This document shows positions 4,592-63,037 of a stretch of 64,000 nucleotides of DNA, piece by piece (the first letter of the stretch is position 1; the number at the start of each line of letters is the position of its first letter). The DNA is from Vicinamibacterales bacterium (lineage in GTDB: Bacteria; Acidobacteriota; Vicinamibacteria; Vicinamibacterales; UBA8438): the NCBI GenBank assembly GCA_965246995.1, contig OZ252008.1, forward strand, positions 562,323-626,322, written 5' to 3'. Position numbers and translations under genes: made by a program. The notes beneath the pieces are model-generated. The model was not told where the DNA came from, did not search any database, and worked only from the letters and a program-made list of their open reading frames with translations.

Positions 4592-4749
4592 GAGTCCGTG
4601 GTGAAACCCCGGGTAGCACCGAGAGCGGCGAGGCGCTCGCCTGACAAGGCGCGACGAGGAAGCATATTGGCCATATGAGACCGAGGAGCAACGCCGTTCA
4701 GGCGGGATGCATCGCCGCTCGAATGTAGCGGGGGTTTCACCACGGGCTC
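4592..4749 (-). mobile_element. MITE-like palindromic element, copy B (short form, 158 bp, inverted orientation)
   Basis: Same family as copy A. Termini are GAGTCCGTGGTGAAACCCC ... GGGGGTTTCACCACGGGCTC. It is flanked by the direct repeat CTGG (4588-4591) and CTGG (4750-4753). Confidence 0.85.
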
Positions 4750-8655: not shown

Positions 8656-8685
8656 TAGGCTAGCCCCCCCACAGGAGGCCCCCCC

Positions 8686-10035
8686 ATGCAGCCCGATCAG
8701 CGACGCTCGTTCCTGCCGTCCTTCATCGTCGTGGGCGTACTCGCCGCGACGCTCGGCATCGGCGCTATTTTCCTCGGCGAGTTGTACGAAGCGACCACGC
8801 CGAGCGCCATTGCGGCCCCTGGCGATGTCGCCGGCGCGGTCGGCGAGGCCGATCTCGCCACCGTGGACCCCGCCGCCGTCGGGCTTTCCGCCGAACGTCT
8901 CGAGCGCCTCGACGATGGCCTGCAGGGGCTGGTGGACGACGGCAAGATCGCGGGCGTCGTCGCGCTGCTCGCCCGCCACGGCAAGATCGTGTTCACCGAC
9001 GTGGCCGGCGTCCAGAACGTCGATACCGGCAGCCCGATGGGGCGCGACTCCATCTTCCGCATCTTCTCGATGACGAAGCCGATCACCGGCGTCGCGATGA
9101 TGATGCTCTATGAGGAAGGGAAGTGGCGCCTGAACGATCCGGTCGAGCGCTACATCCCCGAGTTCGCCGACCTGAAGGTGCACGTCGGTGAGAACTCCGA
9201 CGGCTCGATGCGACTCGAGGACCCCGACCATCCGATCACGATGCGCGAACTGATGACGCATACCGCCGGCCTCGGCTACGTCCTCAATCCGCGCCACCCG
9301 GTCAACCAACTGTTCCTCGAGCAGCGCGTCCTCAACCCGACGGAAGAACTCCAGGTGATGATCGACAAGCTCGCCGGGATCCCGCTGCTGGAGCAGCCGG
9401 GGCAGCGCTGGATCTACAGCGTGGCGGTCGACGTGCGCGGCTACCTGGTGGAGCAGCTTTCGGGCGTGCCGTTCGAGCAGTTCCTGCAGGACCGCATCTT
9501 CGACCCGCTCGGCATGGTCGACACGAAGTTCTACGTCCCGGAGTCGAACGTCGACCGCATCGCGCTCCGTCACCGGATCGATGAGGGCGGCGACCTCGCG
9601 CTCGATTCACGCGGCGACCCGTTCACGTCGAACCCGGCCGGTCCGTCGGGCGGCGGCGGCCTCTTCGGCACCGCCGACGACTACCTCCGCTTCGCGCAGA
9701 TGCTCCTGAACGGCGGCGAGTTCGATGGCCACCGCCTGCTCTCGCCCCGCACCGTCGAGATGATGCGCACCAACCACATGTCGGCGCAGGCGACCGAGAA
9801 CATGCGCGCCGGCATGGGCTTCGGCATGGACGTCATGATCTACATGGATCCGGCCGCGGCCGGCGAGCCGCATGGCGTCGGCAGCTACTACTGGCTCGGC
9901 ATCGACGGCACCTGGTTCTGGATCGATCCGGTCCACGACCTCGTCTTCGTCGGCATGCTCCAGCATCAGGGCCCGAATCAGGGGATGACGCACGGGCTCA
10001 GCCGCAACTGGGTCTACCAGTCCATCGTGCACTGA
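8686..10035 (+). CDS. Serine hydrolase of the beta-lactamase/esterase (class C-like) family
   Basis: 449 aa with an N-terminal TM/signal segment and the S-x-x-K motif in FRIFSMTKPITGVAMMML. The family is beta-lactamase-related. Confidence 0.8.
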   Translation: MQPDQRRSFLPSFIVVGVLAATLGIGAIFLGELYEATTPSAIAAPGDVAGAVGEADLATVDPAAVGLSAERLERLDDGLQGLVDDGKIAGVVALLARHGKIVFTDVAGVQNVDTGSPMGRDSIFRIFSMTKPITGVAMMMLYEEGKWRLNDPVERYIPEFADLKVHVGENSDGSMRLEDPDHPITMRELMTHTAGLGYVLNPRHPVNQLFLEQRVLNPTEELQVMIDKLAGIPLLEQPGQRWIYSVAVDVRGYLVEQLSGVPFEQFLQDRIFDPLGMVDTKFYVPESNVDRIALRHRIDEGGDLALDSRGDPFTSNPAGPSGGGGLFGTADDYLRFAQMLLNGGEFDGHRLLSPRTVEMMRTNHMSAQATENMRAGMGFGMDVMIYMDPAAAGEPHGVGSYYWLGIDGTWFWIDPVHDLVFVGMLQHQGPNQGMTHGLSRNWVYQSIVH

Positions 10036-10064
10036 CGCCGGGCGTCGGCGCGCGGCCTTGCGGG

Positions 10065-10565
10065 TCAGCGAATGCGTTCCACGCGACCGGACGAGCTGCG
10101 GATGTCCTGCTCCTCGACCGCGCCGTCATGAATCGTCACGTTGCCGGAACTGCTGATGTCGATCTGGAGTGCGCCGGCTTCGATGCCCTCCATCGACAGG
10201 TCGCCGGAGCTGCTGATGTCGACCTCGAAGCGGTCCGCCGACAGCCTGGAGGCGTGCGCGTTGCCGCTGCTGGAGAGCGCGATACGCTCGAGGGACCTGA
10301 CGGTGAGCGTAAAGCGAACCGGTTCGGACGGCTGCAGATTGGCACCCCGCCGGCCGCGGATTCTCAGGGTGTCGCCGACCTGTTCCGCCTCGAAATACGG
10401 AAGCAGGTTGTCGTCCGTTTCGATGCGCAGCTCTTCCCGATCCCCAAGATGGATGTCCAGCTCGCCAAGCGTCGACAGCCGGACGCCGGTGAGGTCGGTG
10501 AACGTGTAGGTATCCTCGGCGATCGTTCCCGATCCCTGGAGGGTCTCCTGGTTGGTGATGCTCAC
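10065..10565 (-). CDS. GIN-domain (DUF2807-like, putative adhesin-head) beta-helical repeat protein
   Basis: 166 aa with repeated SSSG(D/N)..(I/V) strands (ALSSSGNAHAS, DISSSGDLSMEG, DISSSGNVTIHDG). No signal peptide is present. The GTG start overlaps the stop of a 19-codon upstream ORF (10562-10621). Confidence 0.55.
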   Translation of the reverse strand: MSITNQETLQGSGTIAEDTYTFTDLTGVRLSTLGELDIHLGDREELRIETDDNLLPYFEAEQVGDTLRIRGRRGANLQPSEPVRFTLTVRSLERIALSSSGNAHASRLSADRFEVDISSSGDLSMEGIEAGALQIDISSSGNVTIHDGAVEEQDIRSSSGRVERIR

Positions 10566-16984: not shown

Positions 16985-17178
16985 GAGCCCGTGGTGAAAC
17001 CCCTGCTACATTCGAGCGGCGATGCATCCCGCCTGAACGGCGTTGCTCCTCGGACTGCGTTCAGTCCGCGGACTGCGTCAGTCCGCGGTCGCAATATGGC
17101 CAATATGCTCCCTCGTCGCGCCTTGTCAGCCGGGCGCCTCACCGCTCTCGGTGCGACGCGGGGTTTCACCACGGGCTC
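16985..17178 (+). mobile_element. MITE-like palindromic element, copy C (long form, 194 bp, two central hairpin modules)
   Basis: It has the same termini as copy A. The centre carries GGACTGCGTTCAGTCC and GGACTGCGTCAGTCC. Flanks are CCAG (16981-16984) and CTAG (17179-17182). It lies between trkA and trkH. Confidence 0.85.
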
Positions 17179-25048: not shown

Positions 25049-26776
25049 ATGGTGATCATGTCCAGAAAGACACTGGCGGTGGCGGCGATGCTGGGAATCA
25101 CGCTGATCGGCTCCGACTTCCAAACGCAGGCGCAAACGCAGGATGCCCTCGGCCACGGCTACAGCCGCCCGGCCCGCAGCGTCCATGGCAGCCGTTCCGA
25201 GGTGATCGCCCCGAACGGTATGGTCGCGGCGAGCCAGCCGCTTGCCGCGCAGGTGGGCCTCGAGGTCCTCAAGTCGGGCGGCAACGCGATCGATGCCGCC
25301 GTCGCGGTCAACGCGATGCTCGGCCTGGTCGAGCCGCACATGAACGGGGTTGGCGGCGACCTCTTCGCCATCCTCTGGCACGCCGAGACCGAGCAGCTCT
25401 ATGCGCTGAACGGCACCGGGCGCGCGCCGTACGAGATCAGCCGCGAGACGCTGGTCAGCCAGGGCTACGAACGGATGCCGGGCGCCGGTCCGCTCACCTG
25501 GACGGTTCCGGGCGCGGTCGATGCCTGGTCGCAACTGCTCGAACGCTTCGGCACGATGGAGCTGGCCGACCTGCTCCAGCCCGCCATCGACTACGCGCGC
25601 AACGGCTTCCCGGTCAGCGAGATCATTCAGGGGCAGTGGTCCGGGTCGATGCCGTCCCTCCGCGAGTGGCCGACATCAGCCGCGACGTACCTGCCGAACG
25701 GCAGGCCGCCGGCTGTGGGCGAGCTGTTCAAGAACCCGCAGCTCGCGGACACCTACGAACAGGTCGCGCGCGGCGGCCGCGATGCGTTCTACCGCGGCGA
25801 GATCGCGCGGAAGATAGTCGCGTTCAGTGAAGCGAACGGCGGCTACTTCACGATGGCCGACTTCGAGGATCACACGTCCGAGTGGGTCGAGCCGGTCGGC
25901 ACCAACTACCGCGGCTACGACATCTGGGAGGTACCGCCCAACAGCTCCGGGATCCTCGCACTGATGATCCTGAACATCCTGGAGGGCTATGACATCGCGT
26001 CGCTCGGCCACAACAGCGCGGATGCGCTGCACCTCTTCGCGGAGGCGAAGAAGCTGGTCTGGGCGGATCGCAACACCTACGTCGCCGACGCGAACGCCAA
26101 CACGCTGCCGACGCAGCCGCTCATCTCGAAGCCGTATGCGGAATCGCGCCGCAAGATGATCGACAAGGGACGCGCCGCGACCGAGGTGACCCCCGGCAAC
26201 CCGTTCGAGCACAGCGACACCGTCTATCTGACCGTGGTCGACAAGGACCGGAACGCCATCTCGTTCATCGAGAGCATCTTCGGCGGTTTCGGCTCGAAGA
26301 TCGTGCCGGGCGACCTCGGCTTCGCGCTCCAGAACCGGGGTTCAGGCTTCTCCCTCGAGGAGGGGCACCTCAATTCGCTCGAGCCGCACAAGCGCTCGCT
26401 CCACACCAACATGCCGGGCTTCGTCACCAAGGACGGCAAGCCGTTCATGCCGTTCGGCGTGATGGGCGGTCCGATGCAGCCGCAGGGTCACTGGCAGATC
26501 CTGTCGAACATCATCGACCACGGCATGAACATCCAGGAAGCGGGCGACGCCGCGCGCGTGCGCCACAGCCCGAGCAGCTATCCGGGGGGCACGCTGGCCG
26601 TCGAGCCGGGCATCTCGGACGAAGTCATCGCGGAGCTCCGCCGCCGCGGCCACCATGTCGAACGGCAGGGTGGGGGCGGCATGGGGGGCTACCAGGCGAT
26701 CATGATCCACCCCGAAACCGGCATGCTCCACGGCGGGACCGATCCTCGCAAGGACGGTCTGGTGGCGGGGTACTAG
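25049..26776 (+). CDS. ggt: Gamma-glutamyltranspeptidase
   Basis: It has a signal peptide and GMVAASQPLAAQVGLEVLKSGGNAIDAAVA. The autoprocessing region reads HSDTVYLTVVDKDRNAISFIESIFGGFGS. The stop TAG (26774-26776) lies in the CTAG flank of MITE copy D. Confidence 0.9.
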   Translation: MVIMSRKTLAVAAMLGITLIGSDFQTQAQTQDALGHGYSRPARSVHGSRSEVIAPNGMVAASQPLAAQVGLEVLKSGGNAIDAAVAVNAMLGLVEPHMNGVGGDLFAILWHAETEQLYALNGTGRAPYEISRETLVSQGYERMPGAGPLTWTVPGAVDAWSQLLERFGTMELADLLQPAIDYARNGFPVSEIIQGQWSGSMPSLREWPTSAATYLPNGRPPAVGELFKNPQLADTYEQVARGGRDAFYRGEIARKIVAFSEANGGYFTMADFEDHTSEWVEPVGTNYRGYDIWEVPPNSSGILALMILNILEGYDIASLGHNSADALHLFAEAKKLVWADRNTYVADANANTLPTQPLISKPYAESRRKMIDKGRAATEVTPGNPFEHSDTVYLTVVDKDRNAISFIESIFGGFGSKIVPGDLGFALQNRGSGFSLEEGHLNSLEPHKRSLHTNMPGFVTKDGKPFMPFGVMGGPMQPQGHWQILSNIIDHGMNIQEAGDAARVRHSPSSYPGGTLAVEPGISDEVIAELRRRGHHVERQGGGGMGGYQAIMIHPETGMLHGGTDPRKDGLVAGY

Positions 26777-26952
26777 GAGCCCGTGGTGAAACCCCCGCTA
26801 CATTCGAGCGGCGATGCATCCCGCCTGAACGGCGTTGCTCCTCGGACTGTGGCAGTCCGCGGTCGTCATATGGCCAATATGCTCCCTCGTCGCGCCTTGT
26901 CAGGCGAGCGCCTCGCCGCTCTCGGTGCTACGCGGGGTTTCACCACGGACTC
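26777..26952 (+). mobile_element. MITE-like palindromic element, copy D (medium form, 176 bp, one central hairpin module)
   Basis: It has the same termini as the other copies and a central GGACTGTGGCAGTCC. It is flanked by CTAG (26773-26776) and CTAG (26953-26956). Confidence 0.85.
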
Positions 26953-28158
26953 CTAGTTCCACGGAGGGGTCCTCCCCAATTCCGCTGGCGCGAGGGACAA
27001 GTTGGGAAGAGCCGCGAGACGGGCCACGTCCGTGACCGCCAGGACTGTGATGTTGCGGTCCGCCGGGTAGGTGCTGTTCGTTGGACAGACGACGAACAGG
27101 TGATCGAGCCCGAGTGTGGCGGTAACGTTGCGCAACTGGGCGGTCACCCTGGGCGCCTCGCTGAACTTCACCTCGAATCCGATACGGCGGCCGCGGTGTA
27201 ACACGAGCAGGTCCAGCTCGCCGCCCCCGTGGGCCGCCCAGAACCACGCCTGAACGGGATCCAGGGCCGACAGGATCTGTTCGATCACGAAGCCTTCCCA
27301 GGATGGCCCGACACGCGGGTGGCTGAAGAGCTCGGCGTCGTTCCGGATCCCGAGCAACGCGTGCAGCAGACCGGTGTCGCGGAGGTAGACCTTCGGCGCC
27401 TTGACCTGGCGCTTGGCGACGTTCTCGTACCAGGGCTGGAGCTGGCGGACCATGAAGGCTCCGGTCAGCAGGTCCAGATAACCGCGGACCGTCTTGTCAG
27501 AGGCGCTGATCGAGCGGCCCAGGCTGGAGGCGTTCCAGGTCTGGCCGTGCCAGTGCGCGAGCATCGTCCAGAACCGCTCGAGGGCGGCGGCCCGGATGGT
27601 GATGCCCAATTGCGGGATGTCGCGTTCCAGGAACGTGCGTATGAACGCGCGGCGCCACGAGTGGCCGTCGTCATCCGTCGGCGCGAGATACGACCTCGGA
27701 AGTCCGCCGCGCAGCCAGAGCGTCCGCCAGGCGTCGGCGCCGGTCTCCGAGAGATCGAAGCCGGTCATATCGATGAACTCGACCCGGCCGGCGAGGGACT
27801 CGGATACAACCCGCACGATCCCGGGTGACGCGCTGCCCAGGATCAGGAAGCGCGTTCTCGCGCCGGGGCGGTCTGCCAGCACCCGCAGGACGTTGAAGAG
27901 GTGCGGCATCCGCTGGATTTCGTCCACCACAACCAAGCCGTCGAGCGCCCCGAGGACCAGCTCGGGATTGGCGATTCGGCGAACGTCCTGATTGGATTCC
28001 AGGTCAAGAAAGGTGGCGTTGCGCGTTGCCGCGAACTGCCGGGCGAGCGTCGTCTTGCCGCACTGCCGGGGTCCCAGCAGCGAGGTGACAGGCGCGCGGC
28101 GGGTTGCGGCGGCGAGTCGATCCAGGTAGTCGGAGCGGGCAACCAGGGTGTCTGACAC
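26953..28158 (-). CDS. AAA+ ATPase with a DUF4143-type C-terminal domain (COG1373-like)
   Basis: The Walker A motif is LLGPRQCGKTTLARQF and the Walker B region is LVVVDEIQ. 401 aa with a GTG start. The stop is the reverse TAG of the MITE flank. Confidence 0.75.
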   Translation of the reverse strand: MSDTLVARSDYLDRLAAATRRAPVTSLLGPRQCGKTTLARQFAATRNATFLDLESNQDVRRIANPELVLGALDGLVVVDEIQRMPHLFNVLRVLADRPGARTRFLILGSASPGIVRVVSESLAGRVEFIDMTGFDLSETGADAWRTLWLRGGLPRSYLAPTDDDGHSWRRAFIRTFLERDIPQLGITIRAAALERFWTMLAHWHGQTWNASSLGRSISASDKTVRGYLDLLTGAFMVRQLQPWYENVAKRQVKAPKVYLRDTGLLHALLGIRNDAELFSHPRVGPSWEGFVIEQILSALDPVQAWFWAAHGGGELDLLVLHRGRRIGFEVKFSEAPRVTAQLRNVTATLGLDHLFVVCPTNSTYPADRNITVLAVTDVARLAALPNLSLAPAELGRTPPWN

Positions 28159-28244
28159 GCTGATATTTCACTTGAACACTCGGATACTAGATCCGAATAT
28201 TCAATATATTGACACGCTGGCGCGGCGTTTGCCGCGATCTGTCG

Positions 28245-36929: not shown

Positions 36930-38375
<1,446 letters not shown>

Positions 38376-39973
38376 GAGTTTGCGCCGCAGAAAAGGGATG
38401 CGACAATCGCAGACCATCCGACGACGAAAGGACCTGATGTCGACGACGTTCCGCCGCTACGCACCGGACCAGACCCTGTTGCTGCCAGCCGACATGCGGG
38501 AGTGGCTGCCGGAAGGCCACTTGGCGCATCACGTGAGCGACCTGGTGGACGGTTTGGATCTGACGGCGTTCTACGCGCCGTATGAGGGAGACGGACGGCG
38601 CAACGCGCCGTATGCGCCGCGGATGCTGGTGAAGGTGCTGATCTACGCGTATGCGACGGGGGTGTTTTCGTCGCGGGGGATCGCGAAGAAGCTGGAAGAG
38701 GACGTGGCGTTCCGGGTGCTGGCGGCGGGCAACTTTCCGCAACACCGGACGGTGTGCGAGTTCCGTCGGCGGCACCTTGGGGACTTCAAGAAACTGTTTG
38801 TGGAGGTGGTGCGTCTGGCGCAAGAGCTGGGGCTGGCGAGCTTCGGGAAGTTGTCGATAGACGGGACGAAGGTGCGGGCGAACGCGAGCAAGCGCAAGGC
38901 GATGAGCTACGGTCGGATGCAGGAGGAGGAGCGTCGCTTGGTCGGCGAGATTGACGCGCTGCTGGCGTCGGCGGACGACGCTGACGCGGCCGAGGATGCG
39001 CGGTTGGGGGCGGAGGTGCGCGGCGACGAGCTGCCGACGGAGTTGCGGCGGCGGGAGGATCGTCTGGCGGCGATCCGGGCGGCGAAGGCGCGTCTGGAGG
39101 CGGCGCAGCGGGCGGCGGACGACGCGCGCGGGCGGCAGCCGGGCGAGGGTCGGAACCCGCAGGGCGGTCGGCCGTACAAGCGGGGGTATGGCGAGCCGGA
39201 CGAGAAGGCGCAGAGCAACTTCACGGATCCGGACAGCGGGATCATGAAGACGAGCAACGAAGGGTTCCAGCAGTGCTACAACGCGCAGGTGGCGGTGGAT
39301 GGTGACCACCAGTTGGTGGTGGCGACCGACGTGACGGCGAACGCGAGTGACCAGGGCGGGTTGCCGGCGCTGCTCGACGCGGTGTCGGAGACGTTCGACG
39401 CGCAGCCGGAGACGGTGCTGGCCGACGCCGGGTATTGCAACGAGCGGGACTTGGTGGACCTGGAGACGCGGGGCGTCAACGGGTATGTGGCGCCGGGACG
39501 AGAGGGTAAGACGGCGGCGACCAGCGACCCCAAGAAGCATCCGGCGACGAGTCGCATGTCGGAGAAACTGGCGACGCGGGCGGGCCGGGCGGCGTATGCG
39601 GAACGCAAGTGGCTGTCGGAGGCCCCGCACGGCTGGATCAAGCACGTGCTGGGATTCCGGCGCTTCAGCCTGCGGGGACTCGCCACGGCGGGCGGCGAGT
39701 GGGACTTGGTGTGCCTGGCGTTGAACGTCAAACGCCTTCAGCCCCTGATGGGGATGTGAAACGCGAGGTATGAAGCCGGCAACGGCCGCGCAGCGGTGCG
39801 AATCGTGGCCGCTGGCGAGCCCCGGGGCGCGTCGGAGCCGATTTTGCCGACCGTTTCGCCGGCCGCCGAGAATCGACCTCGCCCGCTGACCGGCGAAGTC
39901 GCCCCGACGCGGTGCGTCAGGTTGTGGGCCGACGGCCAACTATCGTCCGGCGAATCTCCTGCGGCGCAGACTC
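38376..39973 (+). mobile_element. IS1182-family insertion sequence, copy 1 (1598 bp)
   Basis: The inverted termini are GAGTTTGCGCCGCAG and CTGCGGCGCAGACTC. It is flanked by CTAG (38372-38375) and CTAG (39974-39977) and contains a single transposase ORF. Confidence 0.85.
38437..39759 (+). CDS. IS1182-family DDE transposase
   Basis: MSTTFRRYAPDQTLLLPADMREWLPEGHLAHHV...RNAPYAPRMLVKVLIYAYATGVFSSRGIAKKLEEDVAFRVLAAGNFPQHRTVCEFRRRH...LSIDGTKVRANAS is the typical IS1182 N-terminal region and DDE region. Confidence 0.88.
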   Translation: MSTTFRRYAPDQTLLLPADMREWLPEGHLAHHVSDLVDGLDLTAFYAPYEGDGRRNAPYAPRMLVKVLIYAYATGVFSSRGIAKKLEEDVAFRVLAAGNFPQHRTVCEFRRRHLGDFKKLFVEVVRLAQELGLASFGKLSIDGTKVRANASKRKAMSYGRMQEEERRLVGEIDALLASADDADAAEDARLGAEVRGDELPTELRRREDRLAAIRAAKARLEAAQRAADDARGRQPGEGRNPQGGRPYKRGYGEPDEKAQSNFTDPDSGIMKTSNEGFQQCYNAQVAVDGDHQLVVATDVTANASDQGGLPALLDAVSETFDAQPETVLADAGYCNERDLVDLETRGVNGYVAPGREGKTAATSDPKKHPATSRMSEKLATRAGRAAYAERKWLSEAPHGWIKHVLGFRRFSLRGLATAGGEWDLVCLALNVKRLQPLMGM

Positions 39974-39977
39974 CTAG

Positions 39978-41681
39978 CCCGGATAATTCAGGAAGGGTCC
40001 GATTACGGTAGAAAAACAAGAGCCTCCGCGTGGTATAAATGGCTTATTCACAGACATTTACCCACCACGGAGGCCCTTGCGTGACGATCAATACGATACC
40101 ACAGACTGTCCTCTTTCCGGATCTCTTCGACAAGCCCCTCGTCGCGACGTTCGACCGCCGGCACGCGAGTTCCGATGGCGGCGCCGTCCTGCTCAAGGCG
40201 GCGGAGCGCGTGTATGGGTTGGTGGCGGGTTTCGCCCGGTGTCTGGTGGACCGGCGGGAGCCCGGGAAGATCCGGCACACGCTGGCGGAGTTGCTCGGCC
40301 AGCGGATCTTCGGCATTGCCTGCGGCCATCCCGATGGCAACGACGCCGACCACCTCGCCGACGACCCGATCCACAAGCTGTTGCTCGGGCGGGACCCGGT
40401 GGCGGGGGAGGCGTTGGCCTCGCAGCCGACGATCTCGCGGTTCGAGAACGGCGTTGGCCGGTCCGCCCTCTACGAGCTGGCGCGCGAGCTGGCGATGCGG
40501 GTCATCGAGCGGCATCAGCGCCGGCTGGACGGGCGGGCGCGGCGCATCACGATCGACCTGGATCCGACCGACGACGCGACGCACGGCGCCCAGCAGCTCA
40601 CCTTCTTCAACGGGCACTACGATCGCTGGTGCTACCTGCCGTTGCTGGCGTTTCTGACCTTCGACAAGGAACGCGAACAGTATCTGTGCGCGGCGGTGCT
40701 GCGGCCCGGCAATGTGCCGGCCCCCCGCGGGACCGTGGGCGTGTTGTGCCGGCTGCTGCCCCTGCTGCGGCAGGCCTTTCCCCAGGCGCGGTTTCTCGTC
40801 CGGCTCGACGGGGGCTTTGCGACACCGGAGATCTTCGACTTCCTGGATGCCGAGCCGCGGCTCGACTACGTGGTGGCCATGGCCAAGAACGCCGTGTTGC
40901 AGCGCCACGCCGAGCCCGCCCTGCTCGTGGCGCAGGCCCAGAGCGCGGCCAGCGGCCAGACCGCGCAGGTCTACGCCGACACCCGCTATCGGGCCCGCAC
41001 GTGGGACCGCGACCGCCGCGTCGTGATCAAGGCCGAGGTCGTCCGGCTCGGCGACCGCGCCCCGCGCGACAACCCGCGCTTCGTCGTGACCAATCTGCGC
41101 CAGACGCCGCGCTTCCTCTATGAACGGATCTACTGCGCCCGCGGCGACATCGAGAACCGCATCAAGGAACTGCTCGATGGCCTGCAGATCGACCGCACGA
41201 GCTGCTGTCGCTTCTGGGCCAATCAACTGCGCGTGCTGCTCACCGCCGCCGCCTACGTGCTGATGCAAGAACTCCGGCTGCGCGCGGCGCGCACCGCCTG
41301 TGCCCGCGCCCAGGTGACGTGGCTGCGCGACCGGCTCCTCAAATTGGGGGCGCACGTCGTCGGCTCGGTCCGCCGCGTGGTCCTGCACCTGCCGACCGCC
41401 ACGCCGGACCTCCACGCCTGGCGGCACATCGCGCTGGCACTCGGCGCCCGCCCCGGATAGACCCCAGACAGCGCCCGTCAGCCGCGCATACACGCATCCC
41501 AACGGCGAACCGAGCCCGCCCATGGCGAAGCCGTCCCTGGACGGCCCCATACCCAGGCCTTCCGCACCGGCAATCAGTGTCTATCCCGCCGGCGCTCGAC
41601 GAAAACGACGCCCGGCGGGCCGTGTGCGCGACGATCACACCGTCCGAGGGGCCATCTTGGAGCCTTCAGGAATAGTCCGGG
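39978..41681 (+). mobile_element. IS1380-family insertion sequence, copy 1 (1704 bp)
   Basis: The termini are imperfectly inverted (CCCGGATAATTCAGGAAGG and CCTTCAGGAATAGTCCGGG). It is flanked by CTAG (39974-39977) and CTAG (41682-41685). Confidence 0.8.
40039..41460 (+). CDS. IS1380-family DDE transposase
   Basis: ATFDRRHASSDGGAVLLKAAERVYGLVAGFARCL...IFGIACGHPDGNDADHLADDP...LASQPTISRFENGV...ITIDLDPTDD is the IS1380 pattern. Confidence 0.88.
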   Translation: MAYSQTFTHHGGPCVTINTIPQTVLFPDLFDKPLVATFDRRHASSDGGAVLLKAAERVYGLVAGFARCLVDRREPGKIRHTLAELLGQRIFGIACGHPDGNDADHLADDPIHKLLLGRDPVAGEALASQPTISRFENGVGRSALYELARELAMRVIERHQRRLDGRARRITIDLDPTDDATHGAQQLTFFNGHYDRWCYLPLLAFLTFDKEREQYLCAAVLRPGNVPAPRGTVGVLCRLLPLLRQAFPQARFLVRLDGGFATPEIFDFLDAEPRLDYVVAMAKNAVLQRHAEPALLVAQAQSAASGQTAQVYADTRYRARTWDRDRRVVIKAEVVRLGDRAPRDNPRFVVTNLRQTPRFLYERIYCARGDIENRIKELLDGLQIDRTSCCRFWANQLRVLLTAAAYVLMQELRLRAARTACARAQVTWLRDRLLKLGAHVVGSVRRVVLHLPTATPDLHAWRHIALALGARPG

Positions 41682-41685
41682 CTAG

Positions 41686-41861
41686 GAGTCCGTGGTGAAA
41701 CCCCGCGTAGCACCGAGAGCGGCGAGGCGCTCGCCTGACAAGGCGCGACGAGGGAGCATATTGGCCATATGACGACCGCGGACTGCCACAGTCCGAGGAG
41801 CAACGCCGTTCAGGCGGGATGCATCGCCGCTCGAATGTAGCAGGGGCTTCGCCACGGGCTC
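41686..41861 (-). mobile_element. MITE-like palindromic element, copy E (medium form, 176 bp, inverted orientation)
   Basis: It belongs to the same family, with a central GGACTGCCACAGTCC. Flanks are CTAG (41682-41685) and CTAA (41862-41865). Confidence 0.85.
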
Positions 41862-41887
41862 CTAAGCCGCTGGCCGCGCGAGGCCGG

Positions 41888-57526: not shown

Positions 57527-58399
57527 ATGCTGGCAGCAGAGCGGCATCGTAAGCGGGGGCTCTTCAAGAGCGAAGACCGACCGGCGGAGCTGGGGTGGCG
57601 GTTCCGCCTGCACGAGATCATCTTCGAAGCGGACACGCCCGCCGGCAAGCTCTTCGACGTCGCACTGCTGCTTGCCATCATCGCCAGCGTGGCGGTGGTG
57701 ATGCTCGAGAGCCTGCCGAACGTGCGGCCGCAGTTCGCCTCCCTGCTCCTCCAGATCGAGTGGGTGTTCACGCTCCTGTTCACCGTCGAGTACGCCGCGC
57801 GCATCGCGGCGGTGCGGTATCCGTCGCGCTACATCTTCAGTTTCTTCGGGTTGATTGACCTGATGGCGATCATCCCCACCTGGATCAGCCTGGTACTGCC
57901 CGGGGGCCAGGCGCTGATCGCGATCCGCGTGGTCCGGCTGATCCGCGTATTCCGTGTCCTGAAGCTCGGGCACTACCTGATGGGCGCGGAAGAGCTGACG
58001 GATGCGTTGCGCGAGAGCCGGCCGAGGATAGTCGTCTTTATGGCCGCAGTCGCGTCGATCGCGGTGGTGATGGGCGCGTTGATCTACCTGGTCGAAGGGG
58101 AGGAAAACGGCTTCACGTCGATCCCGCGGGGGGTCTACTGGGCCATCGTGACGATAACGACGGTCGGTTACGGCGACATCTCGCCGCAGACCACCGTCGG
58201 GCAGTTCGCCGCCGTGATCCTGATGCTGATTGGCTACGGGATCATCGCGGTGCCTACCGGCATCTTTTCGGCCGCCATCGCGCGGCGGGGGACGGACCCG
58301 ATATCGACGCAGGCGTGCCTGGAATGCAGCCGGGAGGGTCACGACCCGGACGCCGAGTTCTGCAAGCACTGCGGCGCCGACCTGCACCCGGGGGACTAG
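57527..58399 (+). CDS. Voltage-gated K+ channel (6-TM Kv-type) with a C-terminal zinc-ribbon tail
   Basis: The S4 segment is IRVVRLIRVFRVLKLGH and the selectivity filter is TTVGYGD. The tail is CLECSREGHDPDAEFCKHCGADL (CxxC...CxxC). The stop TAG (58397-58399) lies in the CTAG flank of the IS. Confidence 0.85.
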   Translation: MLAAERHRKRGLFKSEDRPAELGWRFRLHEIIFEADTPAGKLFDVALLLAIIASVAVVMLESLPNVRPQFASLLLQIEWVFTLLFTVEYAARIAAVRYPSRYIFSFFGLIDLMAIIPTWISLVLPGGQALIAIRVVRLIRVFRVLKLGHYLMGAEELTDALRESRPRIVVFMAAVASIAVVMGALIYLVEGEENGFTSIPRGVYWAIVTITTVGYGDISPQTTVGQFAAVILMLIGYGIIAVPTGIFSAAIARRGTDPISTQACLECSREGHDPDAEFCKHCGADLHPGD

Positions 58400-60018
58400 C
58401 AGCCTGTCGGACTTAGGCGCGGCAAACGCGCGTGGAAGCGACTTGGCACCTGTTTGAACGACGCCCTGTGTCTCTGTGCCGGGAGGGCCGCTTCGACCGA
58501 AACGGGGACTGTATCCTGGCCATCGGTCGCTGACGGCGCCTGGAGGTCTTTCTGACGCCTCTGGTGGGTCGCGAACACGCCGAGTTCCGCCCCGTATAGC
58601 CCCGTCATGCCAGCCTGAGGTTGTGCACGCGTCGGCAGTTATACGCCAGCGTTACCAAGGCCCATTCGCCCTCCACCTTCTCAAGACCCCGCAGCAGAAA
58701 CTGCCGGAAGCCCATCGCCTGCTTCACGATCCCGAACACCGGCTCCACCGTCTGCTGGCGCAAACGGTAATGCGCCCGGTGCTCCGGCAGTGCCATCTTC
58801 TCCTGCATCGACTTGATCCAGTCCGCCTGCGGCTCCTTCGCCAGCTGCTCCGGCGGCTCCGGTCGGAAGTCGTGCCGGCGCCGTTGGCCTTCCGCCCCCG
58901 TCGCCACCAACACCTCCACACCGCGACCTGCCAGTTGCGACACCTCGCTGCCCGTCGCGTAGCCACTGTCCGCCAGTACCCGATCCGCCGCGCCCACCGC
59001 CGTCGGTATCGCGTCCACGTCCGCCACCAACTCGTTGCGGTCGCTCGCGCACACGCTCACCCGCGACCCCAACACCAACTGACTGCCGTCGGCATCCACC
59101 ACCGCCTGCGCGTTGTATGCCTGGCGGTACTCATGGCGCCGGCTCTTGCGCATCAGCGCACTGTCCGCATCCGTCAGGTTGATCTGCGCCTTCGCCTCCG
59201 GCGCGTCCCTCGGCGGCGTGATGTGCCGACCCTTGCGCGATCCCGCACGCCGCTCCCGCGCCGCCACCGTGCGCTCGTACTCCGCCCGCTCCGCGTCCGC
59301 ACGCGCCTGCGCACGCCGTTCCAACTCCGCGCACGCACGGTCCAGCTTCGCCCGTAGCGTCTCGCGCCGCGACAACTCCTCCGGCAGACCCTGTGGGTCC
59401 GGCACGTCGTCCGTGTCGGCGTGCTCCGCCTGATCCAACAACCCCTCGATCTCGCCTCGCAACTGCTCGCGCAACGCCCCCGCACGGTCGTAGCGGATGC
59501 TGTTGCGCTTGTTCGCGTTCGCGTCCACCTTCGTCCCGTCCACGCTCACCGTCCCAACACGCAGCAACTGCAGCTCCTTCGCCAGCAGCAGTACCTGCAG
59601 GAACGCCTCCGCTACCGCTTCGAAGTTGCTGCGCCGGAACGTGCAGATCGTGTCGTGGTCCGGATGACAGTTCGCCGCCACGTACCGAACGCCAATGTCC
59701 CGATACGTCGCCCGCTCGATCCGACGCGAGCCGAAGATCCCGTTCGCGTAGCAGTACACCAGCAACGCCAGCATCATCCGCGGGTGATACTGCGCCGATC
59801 CGGTGCCCCGTTCGTTCACCTGGAACCGCTCCAGCGGCACCCGTTCCACCGCCTCCACCACGAAGTGCGCCAGATCGTCCTCAGGCAGCCAATCGCGCAG
59901 GTCCGGCGGCAGCAGATACAACTGCGACTGGTGCCGCTGTACAAAATTCGGCATCTACTTCTACCCCCTCAACTCGACAAGCCCCATTATAAAACCCGGG
60001 CCTAAGTCCGACAGGCTG
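58400..60018 (-). mobile_element. IS1182-family insertion sequence, copy 2 (1619 bp, a different element from copy 1)
   Basis: It has perfect 19-bp inverted termini, CAGCCTGTCGGACTTAGGC ... GCCTAAGTCCGACAGGCTG. It is flanked by CTAG (58396-58399) and CTAG (60019-60022). Confidence 0.88.
58605..59954 (-). CDS. IS1182-family DDE transposase
   Basis: MPNFVQRHQSQLYLLPPDLRDWLPEDDLAHFV...YHPRMMLALLVYCYANGIFGSRRIERATYRDIGVRYVAANCHPDHDTICTFRR...VSVDGTKVDANAN. Confidence 0.88.
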   Translation of the reverse strand: MPNFVQRHQSQLYLLPPDLRDWLPEDDLAHFVVEAVERVPLERFQVNERGTGSAQYHPRMMLALLVYCYANGIFGSRRIERATYRDIGVRYVAANCHPDHDTICTFRRSNFEAVAEAFLQVLLLAKELQLLRVGTVSVDGTKVDANANKRNSIRYDRAGALREQLRGEIEGLLDQAEHADTDDVPDPQGLPEELSRRETLRAKLDRACAELERRAQARADAERAEYERTVAARERRAGSRKGRHITPPRDAPEAKAQINLTDADSALMRKSRRHEYRQAYNAQAVVDADGSQLVLGSRVSVCASDRNELVADVDAIPTAVGAADRVLADSGYATGSEVSQLAGRGVEVLVATGAEGQRRRHDFRPEPPEQLAKEPQADWIKSMQEKMALPEHRAHYRLRQQTVEPVFGIVKQAMGFRQFLLRGLEKVEGEWALVTLAYNCRRVHNLRLA

Positions 60019-60022
60019 CTAG

Positions 60023-61733
60023 CCCGGATTTCTCACCGTTGTAGATACAAGAGACTGCCTGTGATGGCGTAAAGTGTTGTGGCCGCAATACTTTCACACC
60101 AGACACGGAGGCAGCCTCTTGTCCACACAGTGTACGCCAATCCAACTTGAATTTCCGCGTGTCGGCCGCCGCCGACTGGTGGCGCGTTTCGGTGGCGGGC
60201 GGATTACCTCCAACGCGGGCGCGCTATTACTGCAGGCCGTGGAAGCGTGCACGCAGGTGTGCCGGCGTGCGGCGCGGTGCTTCCAGGATCACCGGGACGG
60301 GCGGTGGGTGGAGCACACGGTCGAGGAGTTAGTGACGCAGCGGGTGTTTGGCCTGGCGCTGGGCTACGAAGACCTGAACGACCACGACACGCTGCGGCGC
60401 GACGCGCTATTGGCGGCGGTGGTGGGCAAGGCGGACCCGACCGGGGCATCCCGGGTGCGGGCGGCGGACCGCGGGTCGGCCCTGGCGGGCAAGAGCACGT
60501 TGAACCGGCTGGAGTTGGCGGGGCCTGACGCGGAGACGGACCGCTACAAGAAGGTGAGCTATGACCAGGCGGCGCTCGATGCGCTGCTGGTCGACCTGTT
60601 CATCGAGGCCCACCCGCAGCCGCCCGTGCGCATCGTGCTCGATGTCGATGCCACCGACGACCCGCTGCACGGCCAACAGGAAGGGCGCTTTTTCCACGGC
60701 TACTACCGGCACTACTGCTATCTGCCGCTGTATGTCTTCTGCGGCGCGCACGTGCTGTGTGCACGGCTCCGGCCGGCGAACATCGATGCGGCGGCCGGCG
60801 TGGTCGATGAACTGGCGTGGATCGTGGACCGCGTGCGGCAGGCGTGGCCGACGGTGGCCATTCTGGTGCGCGGCGACTCGGGCTTCTGCCGGGACGCGTT
60901 GCTGAACTGGTGCGAGGCGCACCAGGTGGACTATCTCATCGGGGTCGCCAAGAACGACCGCCTCAAGGCGCAACTGGCGCCGGCGATGGTGCAGGCCCAG
61001 GCCCAGTGCCAGGCGAGCGGTCAGCCGGCCCGGGTGTTCGCCGACTTCGGCTATCGCACGCGCAAGAGCTGGAGCCGGGAGCGGCGGGTCGTCGGCAAGG
61101 CCGAGCACCTGCCGGCCGGGCCGAATCCGCGCTTCGTGGTGACCTCGCTGCCGGCAGACCGCGTCCCGGCCCAGCCGCTGTATGAGGACCTGTATTGCGC
61201 CCGCGGCGATATGGAGAACCGCATCAAGGAGCAGCAACTGGCCTTGTTTGCCGACCGCACCAGCAGTGCCACCCTGCGGGCCAACCAGTTGCGCCTCTAC
61301 TGGTCGACCTTGGCCTACGTCCTGTTGCACGCGCTCCGCAGCCGGGCTTTGGCAGGCACCCGGCTCGCCCGCGCCCAATGCGACACCTTACGCCTCCGGC
61401 TGCTCAAGGTCGGCGCCCATATCCGTGTCACCGCACGCTGCGTCTGGGTCGCGTTGACCGACTATCTGCCTGACGCCGACCTGTTCATCCTCGCCGCCAA
61501 CCGCTTGCACCAAGCGCGCGCACCCGCCTGACGCCCCAGTCCAACGCCAGACCACGTCCGCAGCTACCCGGTGGACTACCCCGGGGCCGGCCCGCTGCGC
61601 CCGACACGCCGCCGTCGGTGTCGCAACCGCCCCGTCCGCCGCCTTCCAACCTCTCCCGCGCGTCCGTGCTGGACCTCCTGCGCCGTAAACTCACCGCTTC
61701 AGCCTCGCGCCGGGTGGCTGTGAGAAATCCGGG
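60023..61733 (+). mobile_element. IS1380-family insertion sequence, copy 2 (1711 bp)
   Basis: The inverted termini are CCCGGATTTCTCAC ... GTGAGAAATCCGGG. It is flanked by CTAG (60019-60022) and CTAG (61734-61737). Confidence 0.85.
60074..61531 (+). CDS. IS1380-family DDE transposase
   Basis: ARFGGGRITSNAGALLLQAVE...VFGLALGYEDLNDHDTLRRD...LAGKSTLNRLE...IVLDVDATDDPLHG. Confidence 0.88.
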   Translation: MLWPQYFHTRHGGSLLSTQCTPIQLEFPRVGRRRLVARFGGGRITSNAGALLLQAVEACTQVCRRAARCFQDHRDGRWVEHTVEELVTQRVFGLALGYEDLNDHDTLRRDALLAAVVGKADPTGASRVRAADRGSALAGKSTLNRLELAGPDAETDRYKKVSYDQAALDALLVDLFIEAHPQPPVRIVLDVDATDDPLHGQQEGRFFHGYYRHYCYLPLYVFCGAHVLCARLRPANIDAAAGVVDELAWIVDRVRQAWPTVAILVRGDSGFCRDALLNWCEAHQVDYLIGVAKNDRLKAQLAPAMVQAQAQCQASGQPARVFADFGYRTRKSWSRERRVVGKAEHLPAGPNPRFVVTSLPADRVPAQPLYEDLYCARGDMENRIKEQQLALFADRTSSATLRANQLRLYWSTLAYVLLHALRSRALAGTRLARAQCDTLRLRLLKVGAHIRVTARCVWVALTDYLPDADLFILAANRLHQARAPA

Positions 61734-61737
61734 CTAG

Positions 61738-61896
61738 GAGCCCGTGGTGAAACCCCCGCTACATTCGAGCGGCGATGCATCCCGCCTGAACGGCGTTGCT
61801 CCTCGGTCTCATACGGGCCAATATGCTCCCTCGTCGCGCCTTGTCAGTCGGGCGCCTCACCGCTCTCGGTGCGACGCGGGGTTTCACCACGGGCTC
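61738..61896 (+). mobile_element. MITE-like palindromic element, copy F (short form, 159 bp)
   Basis: It belongs to the same family. Flanks are CTAG (61734-61737) and CTAA (61897-61900). Confidence 0.85.
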
Positions 61897-61915
61897 CTAA
61901 GGAGGATAGCCGCGA

Positions 61916-63037
61916 CTACTGCTTCACCCGGAGGTCGCGGTCCAGTTCGACGACGGAAGCCCCCAGAGGCGAGAGACGACGGGCATACCGCGCATCGGTG
62001 ATGATGACGCGGTAGCCGTCTGGAGTTTCTTCCACCGCGTAGGCCGGGTAGCGGATCCAGGCGACGAGGCCCTGCACGTGCGGCGCGGTGCGTGCGGCGG
62101 CGATGATGGCGTCGGCGCGCGGACCGCGCGGCTGCCGATCGATGGCCCGCGCCGCCACACGGGGTTCGGCGCCCCGCAGCCAATCGAGATCGAGGAAGTG
62201 GTAATGCTCCGCGTCGGCGACGACGATGTCACGGCGGAACGGATTGCCCGGCGTAGGGGACGCCATCACTTCGATCGGCGTGTCGTCCCCCTGCGCGGCC
62301 AGCCACGCGGCTACCTGTTGCTCGGCGAGGCGCGAGGCAGCGACCATCACGACGATGTAGACCGCGATGGCGGAGAGGCAGATTGTGGCCAGGCGCGGCA
62401 AGGCCAGACGCCATTGTCCGCTCGCGCGCAGCCAGACGATCGCGGCGACGCCGACGCACCAGAGCAGCCGCGTTGCGGCCGGCGCTCCCTCGAAGCCGGT
62501 GACGAGTGACGTCGCGGCGACCCCCAGCACGACCCACGCCGCGAGACTGGCGCGTGACGTGCTGCGCGCGAGGACGACGGAGGTTCCCGCGAGCAGCCAG
62601 ACCCACGGGTCGACCACGAACAGCGCATCGCCGTGGTACCACGTTCCCGAGAACGGCATCAGGAAGCGCACGCCGTACGTGTTGAGCCAGTCCAGAGCCG
62701 GGTGCGTCCAGACGGCGATGGCGCAGACCGCGACGAGCGGAAGGGTTCGAACGGGCGGGCTGTTCTGCCGGACCGGTCCGGAGAACCACCGGCGCGCGCG
62801 ATCCGCGAGAATCAGCAGTCCGGCCAGTGCGAGGGGGAGAACGACCATCGCCAGCAGGCCGTGCGTCCAGCCGCGGCGAAAGCCGAGCGAGACGTCGCGC
62901 GTCATGAAGAGGGTGATGGCGTCGAGGTCCGGGGCGTTCGCGCCCAGCAGCAACGCTGGCGTGGCGAGTGCGGTGGCGCGGCGGAGCCGCGTCTCCGCCA
63001 GTGTCACGCCGATGAGGGTATGGGCGATTGGGTCCAT
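61916..63037 (-). CDS. Membrane-bound metal-dependent hydrolase (YdjM/DUF457-like) with a C-terminal extra-membrane domain
   Basis: MDPIAHTLIGVTLAE...GANAPDLD...RGWTHGLL are YdjM-type His/Asp motifs, followed by several TM helices. 373 aa. Confidence 0.7.
   Translation of the reverse strand: MDPIAHTLIGVTLAETRLRRATALATPALLLGANAPDLDAITLFMTRDVSLGFRRGWTHGLLAMVVLPLALAGLLILADRARRWFSGPVRQNSPPVRTLPLVAVCAIAVWTHPALDWLNTYGVRFLMPFSGTWYHGDALFVVDPWVWLLAGTSVVLARSTSRASLAAWVVLGVAATSLVTGFEGAPAATRLLWCVGVAAIVWLRASGQWRLALPRLATICLSAIAVYIVVMVAASRLAEQQVAAWLAAQGDDTPIEVMASPTPGNPFRRDIVVADAEHYHFLDLDWLRGAEPRVAARAIDRQPRGPRADAIIAAARTAPHVQGLVAWIRYPAYAVEETPDGYRVIITDARYARRLSPLGASVVELDRDLRVKQ

Follow-up and report, generated by a model that had tools for sequence, protein, structure and literature searches.

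The pile-up of mobile elements at positions 58396-61900 of the window (the whole 64-kb stretch of DNA analysed) is best explained by three independent, sequential insertions of unrelated elements that share one target word, CTAG. The MITE in the pile-up is not itself recognised by the other two elements; it acts just as the supplier of the CTAG. The probability of this reading is put at roughly 0.8. The non-autonomous MITE would first have entered a YTAR site between convergent 3' ends, duplicating only the central TA and giving rise to a new CTAG. An IS1380-family element and an IS1182-family element would then have entered that CTAG, in this strain only, by 4-bp staggered cuts, each leaving CTAG duplicated. 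Every IS insertion adds one CTAG, so the next CTAG-specific element can land adjacent and trains form. CTAG trains are ordinary transposon behaviour and need no special homing system; alleles from before and after the insertions show that IS trains arise through a shared, rare 4-bp target which is regenerated each time.

The locus (locus 2) reads CTAG / IS1182-family element / CTAG / IS1380-family element / CTAG / 159-bp MITE / CTAA. A base-exact check upheld the order, coordinates and TIRs given for it in the preliminary description. On its left is a plus-strand gene for a voltage-gated-type ion channel (Kv) of 290 aa (57527-58399; Pfam Ion_trans, 113.7 bits), the stop codon of which, TAG, sits within the first CTAG (58396-58399). 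Of the copies of the duplicated target, this CTAG lies furthest out; in relatives it is the only one, and the MITE comes directly after it. The IS1182-family element, IS1182b, follows at 58400-60018 on the minus strand. It is 1619 bp long and has the TIR CAGCCTGTCGGACTTAGGC; both this TIR, perfect over 19 bp (22/23), and the minus-strand orientation of the transposase (58605-59954, 449 aa, one ORF) are as described earlier. The second copy of the target (60019-60022) separates it from the IS1380-family element, IS1380b (60023-61733, plus strand, 1711 bp), the TIR of which, CCCGGATTTCTCAC, is perfect over 14 bp. IS1380b is oriented with its left end (IRL) toward IS1182b and its right end (IRR) toward the MITE, and encodes a transposase of 470 aa on the plus strand (60119-61531, TTG start at 60119).

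The third copy of the target occupies 61734-61737; the logic of an empty site at a second locus (locus 1, below) and the flank statistics of MITE ends assign its C and TA to the host target and its G to base 1 of the MITE. The MITE (61737-61897, plus strand, TIR GGAGCCCGTGGTGAAACCCC) comprises a 159-bp core at 61738-61896 plus a terminal G and C, and its TA duplication lies at 61735-61736 and 61898-61899. The CTAA at 61897-61900 is composed of the terminal C of the MITE, the TA duplication and a host A. A convergent downstream gene of the YdjM family is found at 61916-63037 on the minus strand (Pfam YdjM, 83 bits); two convergent genes thus have their 3' ends on either side of the insertion site. 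The perfect repeats and the identical 4-bp flanks at this locus are not due to chance. An Rfam scan of 58000-62300 gave nothing credible; the top match, chrB-b, scored 19 bits, below its gathering score of 36.5.

Family membership was judged against curated cut-offs: 270 for NF033551 (IS1182), 180 for NF033539 (IS1380) and 34.7 bits for PF13701. The IS1182b transposase scores 304.5 bits with NF033551 and has the Pfam domain make-up DUF772 + DDE_Tnp_1 + DDE_Tnp_1_6. The single ORF, the TIRs and the length of the element also place it in the family, members of which are about 1.3-1.95 kb long (ISfinder). Its 4-bp target duplication is seen as CTAG/CTAG at locus 2 and as TTAG/TTAG in two other sequences, L026 and L074, which prove the duplication to be of 4 bp. 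The IS1380b transposase scores 384.8 bits with NF033539 and 490 bits with PF13701. The element agrees with the IS1380 family in length (about 1.65-1.7 kb), in repeats that start with CC and in a 4-5 bp duplication; IS1247 duplicates 5 bp (PMC3281130). The exact 470-aa transposase is on record, with the TTG start at 60119 as called in public assemblies. A start at GTG 60074 was rejected, as its product had no exact-protein match and that of TTG 60119 did. Exact-protein look-ups of the IS1182b transposase and of a 546-aa PPK2 ORF found no match.

A second pile-up in the window has the same element order, as had been described, and this was verified at 38372-41865: CTAG / IS1182a / CTAG / IS1380a / CTAG / MITE / CTAA. 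IS1182a lies at 38376-39973 on the plus strand (NF033551, 363.9 bits), IS1380a at 39978-41681 on the plus strand and the MITE at 41685-41862 on the minus strand. This is locus 1; both pile-ups are located between convergent gene ends.

Alleles from related strains show that the MITE came before the IS elements. All comparison data are metagenome assemblies. An identical channel protein is present in five related assemblies, and 14 related assemblies with an identical or near-identical channel gene read GGGGA CTAG followed by the MITE, with no IS; nine of these 14 continue past the MITE to CTAA GGAGG. Compared with these relatives, one CTAG has been turned into three at locus 2. For locus 1, relatives were found via the neighbouring BON-domain protein. 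Six related assemblies are completely empty there and read GCGCAG CTAA GCCGC, where the window has CTAG at one end and the MITE followed by CTAA at the other. Because there are IS-free MITE alleles and empty locus-1 alleles, the MITE is the older insertion, and the IS elements are recent arrivals specific to this strain. Both the creation of a CTAG by MITE insertion and the arrival of the two IS elements in that CTAG are demonstrated by these alleles. Which of the two IS elements arrived first at locus 2 is only inferred, since an intermediate allele (MITE plus one IS) does not occur among the 14 relatives; most likely the MITE was followed by IS1380b, and IS1182b then entered the CTAG on the left-end side of IS1380b.

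Six copies of the MITE are present in the window, with sizes of 158-194 bp and repeats of 19-20 bp in the alignment; further copies are found in L122, L183 and JGI contigs. The sequence has the form GGAGCCCGTGGTGAAACCCC...GGGGTTTCACCACGGGCTCC and folds as a long hairpin (z = -7.3). The element is short and non-coding and has TIRs, dispersed copies, a target duplication and a presence/absence polymorphism (the empty locus-1 allele), all of which are characteristic of a MITE. It occurs, as does the IS1182b repeat, in Vicinamibacterales MAGs.

About 45 of 46 MITE ends have a G beside GAG, and the outer base is variable. Flanks of other MITE copies are TTAG/CTAG (L162, L184), GTAG/CTAG (L189) and CTAG/CTAA (twice in the window). 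As judged from these flanks, the G of the MITE-side CTAG appears to be the MITE's own and the MITE appears to duplicate TA alone, a model based on four to five informative loci. The MITE starts with G and ends with C, so landing in C-TA-A leaves one end as C-TA-G and the other as C-TA-A. A MITE which turns CTAA into CTAG by its own terminal bases is the seed of a train. A 4-bp MITE duplication was rejected; it would require four to five loci to have undergone an identical mutation of the outer base, and it clashes with the CTAA of the empty allele.

The parent of the MITE was sought among other elements. Its TA duplication is as expected for derivation from an IS630/Tc1-mariner element, for which an autonomous relative with matching TIRs and a DDE_3 transposase would be expected as well. 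An IS630-family element in L014 was discarded, as its ends are unrelated. The sole element with MITE-like ends (L183, CAGCCCGTGGTGAAAG) encodes an IS1182-like transposase; resemblance of the MITE TIR to this element predicts a 4-bp duplication, whereas 2 bp are observed. The end motif expected of a full-length partner of the MITE is GGAGCCCGTGGTGAAAC.

CTAG is a rare word in this DNA. The genome has a G+C content of 67%, and the window contains 25 copies against 196 expected from base composition or 78 from a Markov model, a 3-8 fold depletion. MITE or IS ends adjoin 11 of the 25; the remaining 14 include five in coding sequence and nine which are stop-codon or intergenic. The 13 further IS1380b-type copies that were found all have CTAG/CTAG flanks. 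About six of them are in plain host DNA, and none adjoins a MITE. Close copies of IS1380b, each flanked by CTAG, are present in L014 and L015 (99.9% identity) and in L030 and L031 (99.3%). Copies of IS1182b which are 95-99% identical are also found elsewhere, with CTAG or TTAG direct repeats as flanks. In species-representative genomes from many phyla, CTAG abuts 84% of IS1182b-type ends (97/116); the other ends are one-base CTAG variants (TTAG makes up about 2% of ends), and there is no consensus past 4 bp.

Trains of other composition are also found. L014 contains IS1380b / CTAG / IS630-family element (NF033545, 119 bits), and an IS630-family element is also part of the train in L015. L020 contains IS1182a' / CTAG / IS1182b' / CTAG / IS1380b', and L146 and L147 contain a 160-nt MITE / CTAG / IS1182b'. 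The TTAG cases with a 4-bp duplication are TTAG / IS1380-like / TTAG / IS1182-like / TTAG in L074 and TTAG / IS1182b' / TTAG in L026. Trains would build up in a third step: the genome is very poor in CTAG, many of the CTAGs present may have been made or duplicated by the elements themselves, and such CTAGs would lie between gene ends or beside transposons, where insertion is presumably costless. As a counterpoint, the frequency of CTAG by itself does not predict how often a second IS comes to lie directly next to an earlier one. At each locus, the first IS is flanked by about 2 of the 17 tolerated CTAGs in the window, and double occupancy at both loci has p ~0.014. Apart from the two TTAG cases, the duplications by themselves are also compatible with movement of two IS elements as a block, because nearly every spacer is CTAG.

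It is possible, if on balance doubtful, that IS1182-type elements need CTAG and in addition home to the left (transposase-start side) junction of IS1380-family elements. IS1182 and IS1380 elements are adjacent in nine cases (the two pile-ups of the window, L015, L016=L023, L020, L026-29, L030=L032, L031 and L074); in every one, IS1182 adjoins the left end of IS1380, never the right (binomial p = 0.004), a bias which suggests some further attraction or selective filtering. IS1182b is found in both orientations, with different outer flanks. One IS1182b variant has two copies on a single 5.1-Mb contig, both of them at IS1380b left ends (L030, L031). The two cases with the rare TTAG have TTAG as the inner spacer too, so the insertions were made in place, into a word rarely used by IS1182b-type elements. 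IS1380b is often solo, which suggests that IS1380 is the first arrival. Homing of this kind, if real, fixes the order IS1182 / IS1380 / X whenever the right end of IS1380 faces X.

Several observations argue against left-end homing. The two ends of IS1380b share 14 terminal bases and both are then followed by CTAG, with no obvious distinguishing sequence; the left ends of IS1380a, IS1380b and the elements in L026 and L074 share little past CCCGGAT. IS1380 is beside only one of 113 GTDB stretches with the IS1182b repeat, and the IS1182 elements of L146, L147, L149 and L150 do not adjoin IS1380. The sample derives partly from IS1380 look-ups, and minus the IS1182-found loci the bias has a Fisher p of 0.09; IS-rich "junkyard" regions could also inflate adjacency. 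The cue at the left end might lie outside the terminal sequence, for example in a cis-bound transposase, in the local structure of the DNA or in the promoter region with its high A+T content. Were it true, a DDE IS would home to one particular end of an unrelated IS, the right end of which is sequence-identical. The subterminal part of the IS1380 left end loosely resembles the cognate IS1182 repeat; this resemblance was judged too weak for use.

The preliminary description took the recurrence of the order at two loci to mean that these IS families home to the MITE end or to its CTAG. The second of these holds, as a single pre-existing CTAG was entered and duplicated; the first is not supported, given the MITE-free CTAG copies. 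It is very unlikely, and largely refuted, that the transposases of the IS1182 and IS1380 elements recognise the MITE terminus itself in the way that REP/BIME sequences are recognised by IS1397 and ISPpu9/10. Both IS1380 elements of the window do abut a MITE end, and the G of the CTAG comes from that end. However, the count of MITE-adjoining elements among further IS1380b-type copies is 0/13, and the IS1182 elements of the window touch the IS1380 left end, not the MITE, at both loci. IS1380b- and IS1182b-type copies use CTAG in unrelated DNA without a MITE, and the proposed analogy to REP/BIME targeting is not supported. Of the 12 MITE ends in the window, two are occupied and ten are free. In JGI metagenome contigs, about 46 MITE ends all lack an adjacent IS; contigs assembled from short reads, however, tend to end at IS elements. 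Seven of 16 tolerated CTAGs are MITE-flanking, and two hits of two thus have p ~0.19. Two IS elements placed in a single CTAG on one side of a MITE can be arranged in just two ways, and the chance of agreement between the two loci is about 1/2; the same order at two loci is therefore weak evidence by itself. Adjacency alone is insufficient for inferring repeat-targeted homing.

It is highly improbable that insertion is essentially random, with survivors in harmless places (gene ends, transposons) and the CTAGs incidental. The position of both loci between convergent gene ends fits this, as do the many related copies in IS-rich regions. However, 84% of IS1182b-type ends and each of the 13 further IS1380b-type copies have CTAG flanks despite the depletion of the word, and selection for harmless sites is not able to produce this pattern in a CTAG-depleted genome. 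Random insertion alone is refuted as an account of the data, with selection as a probable further contributor to the pattern.

Copying of one composite block (a segmental duplication or an IS1182+IS1380+MITE composite transposon) would account for the family order and the CTAG...CTAA punctuation common to both loci, but it is already refuted by sequence divergence and intermediate alleles: the transposases of the two pile-ups differ, as had been noted, with just 38% (IS1182 pair) and 40% (IS1380 pair) identity, the elements are about 66% identical over parts, IS1182 (its opposite orientation also noted earlier) and the MITE are inverted in pile-up 1 relative to pile-up 2, and relatives have the MITE alone at locus 2 (14 assemblies) or nothing at locus 1 (six).

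Sequential insertion into one CTAG has parallels in known systems. IS5 has the target YTAR (e.g. CTAG/CTAA) and a 4-bp duplication; in the IS630 / Tc1-mariner group, IS630 prefers CTAG and duplicates TA. The elements described here are similar in their short, palindromic, TA-centred target, the IS elements resembling IS5 (4 bp) and the MITE resembling IS630 (2-bp TA); they differ in that the transposases belong to the IS1182 and IS1380 families. REP/BIME-targeting IS elements (IS1397, ISPpu9/10) and IS4321/IS5075, of the IS3 and IS110/IS1111 families, have a long, structured target with a fixed insertion position; IS4321/IS5075 target the terminal repeats of the Tn21 family. These and the present elements alike insert next to or inside other repeated or mobile sequences, but here the sole demonstrated determinant is a 4-bp word which is used in ordinary DNA too. 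A left-end preference of IS1182, if real, would resemble IS4321/IS5075, for which a fixed position and orientation at the repeat is typical of most or all copies; IS1182 elements occur in both orientations, and many copies lie elsewhere.

Within the IS1182 family, ISPse1 of Paracoccus has 1653 bp, 16-bp repeats and a 4-bp duplication (PMC3281130). ISPse1 and a Komagataeibacter/Acetobacter element are like IS1182b in size, in the single DDE transposase with an N-terminal DUF772, in TIRs and in the 4-bp duplication. The IS1182-family element of a Komagataeibacter plasmid is 57% identical, has the repeat start CAGCCTGTCGG in common and is flanked by CTAG/CTAG. According to Siguier et al., as cited in PMC5678879, some family members target palindromes. 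IS1272, also of this family, replaces stem-loops without duplication (PMC5678879); IS1182b differs, as there is no stem-loop replacement here. With 38-57% identity to those compared, the IS1182 elements of this DNA appear to be new sequence variants. A search of one literature library found no statement of CTAG specificity for IS1380- or IS1182-family elements and no description of CTAG trains, an absence which is not proof of novelty. Knowledge of such trains is of use in annotating Vicinamibacterales-type genomes and in reading assembly breaks at these sites.

The prototype of the IS1380 family, IS1380A of Acetobacter pasteurianus (about 1.67 kb), has a transposase with 49.7% identity to that of IS1380b. 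Its TIR, CGCGGATTTCTCAC, is near-identical to that of IS1380b, CCCGGATTTCTCAC, and both elements have a 4-bp, near-palindromic flanking word. This word is TCGA/TTGA in IS1380A, in contrast to CTAG (once TTAG) in the clade found here; a CTAG-specific clade is thus now documented in a family with its prototype on TCGA/TTGA.

The segment at 58396-61900 (pile-up 2, or locus 2) reads CTAG / IS1182 / CTAG / IS1380 / CTAG / MITE / CTAA, and the preliminary description of this layout is exact to the base. The segment begins in the end of a 290-aa ion-channel gene (57527-58399; Pfam Ion_trans), the TAG stop codon of which lies inside CTAG 58396-58399. IS1182b (58400-60018; 1619 bp) is bounded by terminal inverted repeats, CAGCCTGTCGGACTTAGGC, that match perfectly over 19 bp (22/23). 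Its minus-strand 449-aa transposase carries DUF772, DDE_Tnp_1 and DDE_Tnp_1_6 domains and scores 304.5 bits with NCBIfam IS1182 (cut-off 270). After CTAG 60019-60022 follows IS1380b (60023-61733; 1711 bp; 14-bp repeat CCCGGATTTCTCAC), the transposase of which scores 384.8 bits with the IS1380 model (cut-off 180) and 490 bits with PF13701. The true start of this protein is TTG 60119, giving 470 aa; the same form is annotated in public assemblies. CTAG 61734-61737 precedes a 159-bp copy of a MITE that occurs six times in the window, and CTAA comes after it. The elements are members of the IS1182 and IS1380 families and a TA-duplicating MITE.

Pre-insertion neighbourhoods were retrieved by exact-protein look-ups from related assemblies; several contigs span 3-5 Mb, and all comparison sequences are metagenome assemblies. 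At locus 2, all 14 contigs with an identical or near-identical channel gene read GGGGA CTAG and then the MITE directly; none of the 14 has an IS at this locus. The far side is CTAA GGAGG, followed by a YdjM gene, in the nine contigs that extend so far. Locus 1 (pile-up 1) is wholly empty in six contigs (GCGCAG CTAA GCCGC). These IS-free and empty alleles show that the MITE arrived before the IS elements and that both IS elements are recent and strain-specific. The CTAG count at locus 2 rose from one to three, which means a 4-bp duplication by each IS; we infer that IS1380 inserted before IS1182 here. The reconstruction is clean, and the seeding of CTAG by the MITE is a neat detail.

The ancestral target at locus 1 is CTAA, and the occupied allele has CTAG opposite CTAA; the G thus did not come from the target. 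A MITE with true ends G...C that duplicated TA only would give C-TA-[G...C]-TA-A, or CTAG...CTAA, and the flanks at both window loci match this model exactly. A 4-bp duplication of CTAA would instead yield CTAA...CTAA. The terminal base of the MITE itself creates the CTAG. When JGI metagenome contigs were scanned with the MITE repeat, about 46 further ends emerged; in all of them except one, the base adjoining GAG is a G. The flank words are CTAG (37), TTAG (3), GTAG (1), CCAG (2) and others (3), the outermost base being variable. Paired flanks (TTAG/CTAG in L162 and L184; GTAG/CTAG in L189) differ at outer positions only, which fits TA duplication and not 4-bp duplication. The PPK2 stop codon (38373-38375) is TAG in the window vs TAA in the empty alleles (L006-L011), because it was rewritten by the MITE terminal G.

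Window copies of the MITE lie at 2181-2338, 4592-4749, 16985-17178, 26777-26952, 41686-41861 and 61738-61896; others are found in a Vicinamibacterales MAG (L122, 7739-7923), which makes this order a guess for the host lineage, and in a JGI metagenome contig (L183, 10077-10245). Copies from all three sources have a conserved interior (GGCGTTGCTCCTCGG ... CCAATATGCTCCCTCGTCGCGCCTTG), and an 18-36-bp insert block accounts for the differences in length. As RNA, the MITE is predicted to fold into a single long hairpin (z = -7.3). Several copies sit exactly between convergent stop codons, e.g. 26773-26956. The IS630-family element of related trains can be dismissed as the autonomous partner, its ends being unrelated. 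In L183, the ends (CAGCCCGTGGTGAAAG) of a truncated IS1182-like element resemble the MITE repeat. Its transposase is fused in frame with a pyridine-nucleotide-disulphide oxidoreductase fragment and lies beside a CTAG-flanked 58-nt mini-element (7393-7450; the stretch as a whole is 7393-10245), which is formed by a back-to-back pair of terminal repeats.

A scan with the 19-bp IS1182b repeat, using one genome per species, gave 113 stretches from Verrucomicrobiota, Gammaproteobacteria, Vicinamibacterales and other groups. CTAG adjoins 97 of 116 IS1182b-type ends (84%), and the remainder are mostly one-base variants; there is no consensus over the next 12 positions. TTAG/TTAG flanks in L026 and L074 prove the 4-bp duplication for this type. 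Look-ups with the exact IS1380b protein and a 96%-identical variant gave 12 further loci. All IS1380b-type copies with ends present (13 further copies) are flanked as CTAG-CCCGSATTTCTCAC...GTGAGAAATSCGGG-CTAG; a 60%-identical relative in L074 has TTAG/TTAG. About six copies lie in ordinary DNA without an adjoining MITE or IS (L017, L018, L019, L022, L024, L025), and in one (L014) the right end adjoins an IS630-family element. A group II intron (RVT_1 + GIIM ORF; GTGCG start, CTAC end) interrupts the IS1380b-type repeat between bases 13 and 14 (CCCGCATTTCTCA^C). The left end is affected in L017 (909-2919) and L021, the right end in L019 (up to 6601) and L021; the intron appears to home to this repeat.

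CTAG is scarce: the window contains 25, vs 196 expected from base composition or 78 from a second-order Markov model. Eleven adjoin an end of a MITE or IS; the 14 others comprise five sites within coding sequence and nine stop-codon or intergenic ones. Four of the five coding-sequence sites (6467, 6488, 6644, 6876) are in one ORF (5270-6964); this is unusual for the genome and may point to a foreign origin of the ORF. Another CTAG, at the centre of the palindrome cggataCTAGatccg (28175-28200), has no connection with the transposons; the palindrome lies in A+T-richer intergenic DNA that separates divergent ORFs, and it resembles an operator. Each insertion adds one CTAG, and the added sites fall in harmless places, next to another transposon or between the ends of convergent genes. 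Trains also form with other partners: IS1380b-CTAG-IS630-family element (L014), IS1182a'-CTAG-IS1182b'-CTAG-IS1380b' (L020; primes denote variants, a the pile-up 1 types), TTAG-IS1380-TTAG-IS1182-TTAG (L074), and a 160-nt MITE with IS1182a-type ends-CTAG-IS1182b' (L146, L147). The pile-up is therefore a guild effect and is not MITE-specific. This second MITE family (ends GAGTCTGCGCCGCAGG; L146 4560-4719 and 6071-6230, L147 2773-2932) is CTAG-flanked and directly adjoins IS1182b-type copies. L146 also has a CTAG-bounded IS1634-family element (NF033559, 311 bits).

CTAG counts alone would not predict that one site is doubly occupied at both loci: the probability is (2/17)^2, or ~0.014. An IS1182-type element lies at the IS1380 left end (the transposase-start side) in 9/9 adjacencies and at the right end in 0/9 (binomial p = 0.004; both pile-ups, L015, L016=L023, L020, L026-29, L030=L032, L031, L074). 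Left and right ends are identical over their 14 terminal bases, and CTAG follows each. A real left-end preference is a tentative reading, somewhat less likely than not. Against a strict rule of homing, the adjacency occurs in only 1/113 GTDB stretches and is absent from 4/10 loci in ENA assemblies, and the sample was partly ascertained via IS1380 look-ups (Fisher p = 0.09 minus IS1182-found loci). The asymmetry is the only part with the potential to become something new. Since almost every spacer is CTAG, the duplications taken by themselves are compatible with movement of a two-IS unit; only the TTAG cases speak against it. Several features argue for separate insertions in place: both IS1182b orientations occur, outer flanks differ, one IS1182b variant has its two copies in a single 5.1-Mb contig both at IS1380b left ends, and the inner spacer is also the rare TTAG in the two TTAG cases.

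It had been proposed that these IS families home to the MITE end or its CTAG. The target word stands, on a CTAG made by the MITE terminal base; the MITE end is not supported: IS1182 elements never touch the MITE, and IS1380b copies elsewhere never adjoin one (0/13 further copies). The suggested analogy with REP/BIME-targeting IS elements is likewise unsupported. No IS was found at the ~46 MITE ends in JGI contigs, a weak observation given that short-read contigs tend to break at IS. MITE-flanking sites are 7/16 of the tolerated CTAGs in the window, so two hits of two have p ~0.19. Pile-up 1 (38372-41865) does have identical punctuation and family order, as described, but a shared order has a chance probability of ~1/2. 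The pile-ups are not two copies of a single block but four distinct IS elements, since transposase identity is only 38% and 40% and the IS1182, like the MITE, is inverted.

Site-specific insertion at a short palindrome with target regeneration is already known behaviour. Komagataeibacter plasmids carry an IS1182-family element (57% identical to IS1182b) with the same repeat start and CTAG/CTAG flanks. In an Acetobacter ascendens plasmid (L194, NZ_CP015171.1, 2040-3490), an IS1182-family element directly adjoining the IS5-like IS12528 has TTAG at one flank and CTAA at the opposite one; these are inverted, not direct, repeats and may be the footprint of inversion between IS copies. The prototype IS1380A of Acetobacter pasteurianus (L195, plasmid NC_017104.1, 50001-100000) has a terminal repeat almost identical to that of IS1380b, CGCGGATTTCTCAC, but its 4-bp flanks are TCGA/TTGA, not CTAG. 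A fixed 4-bp word is thus characteristic of the family, with CTAG the one used by the IS1380b clade; target word and terminal repeat have diverged independently.
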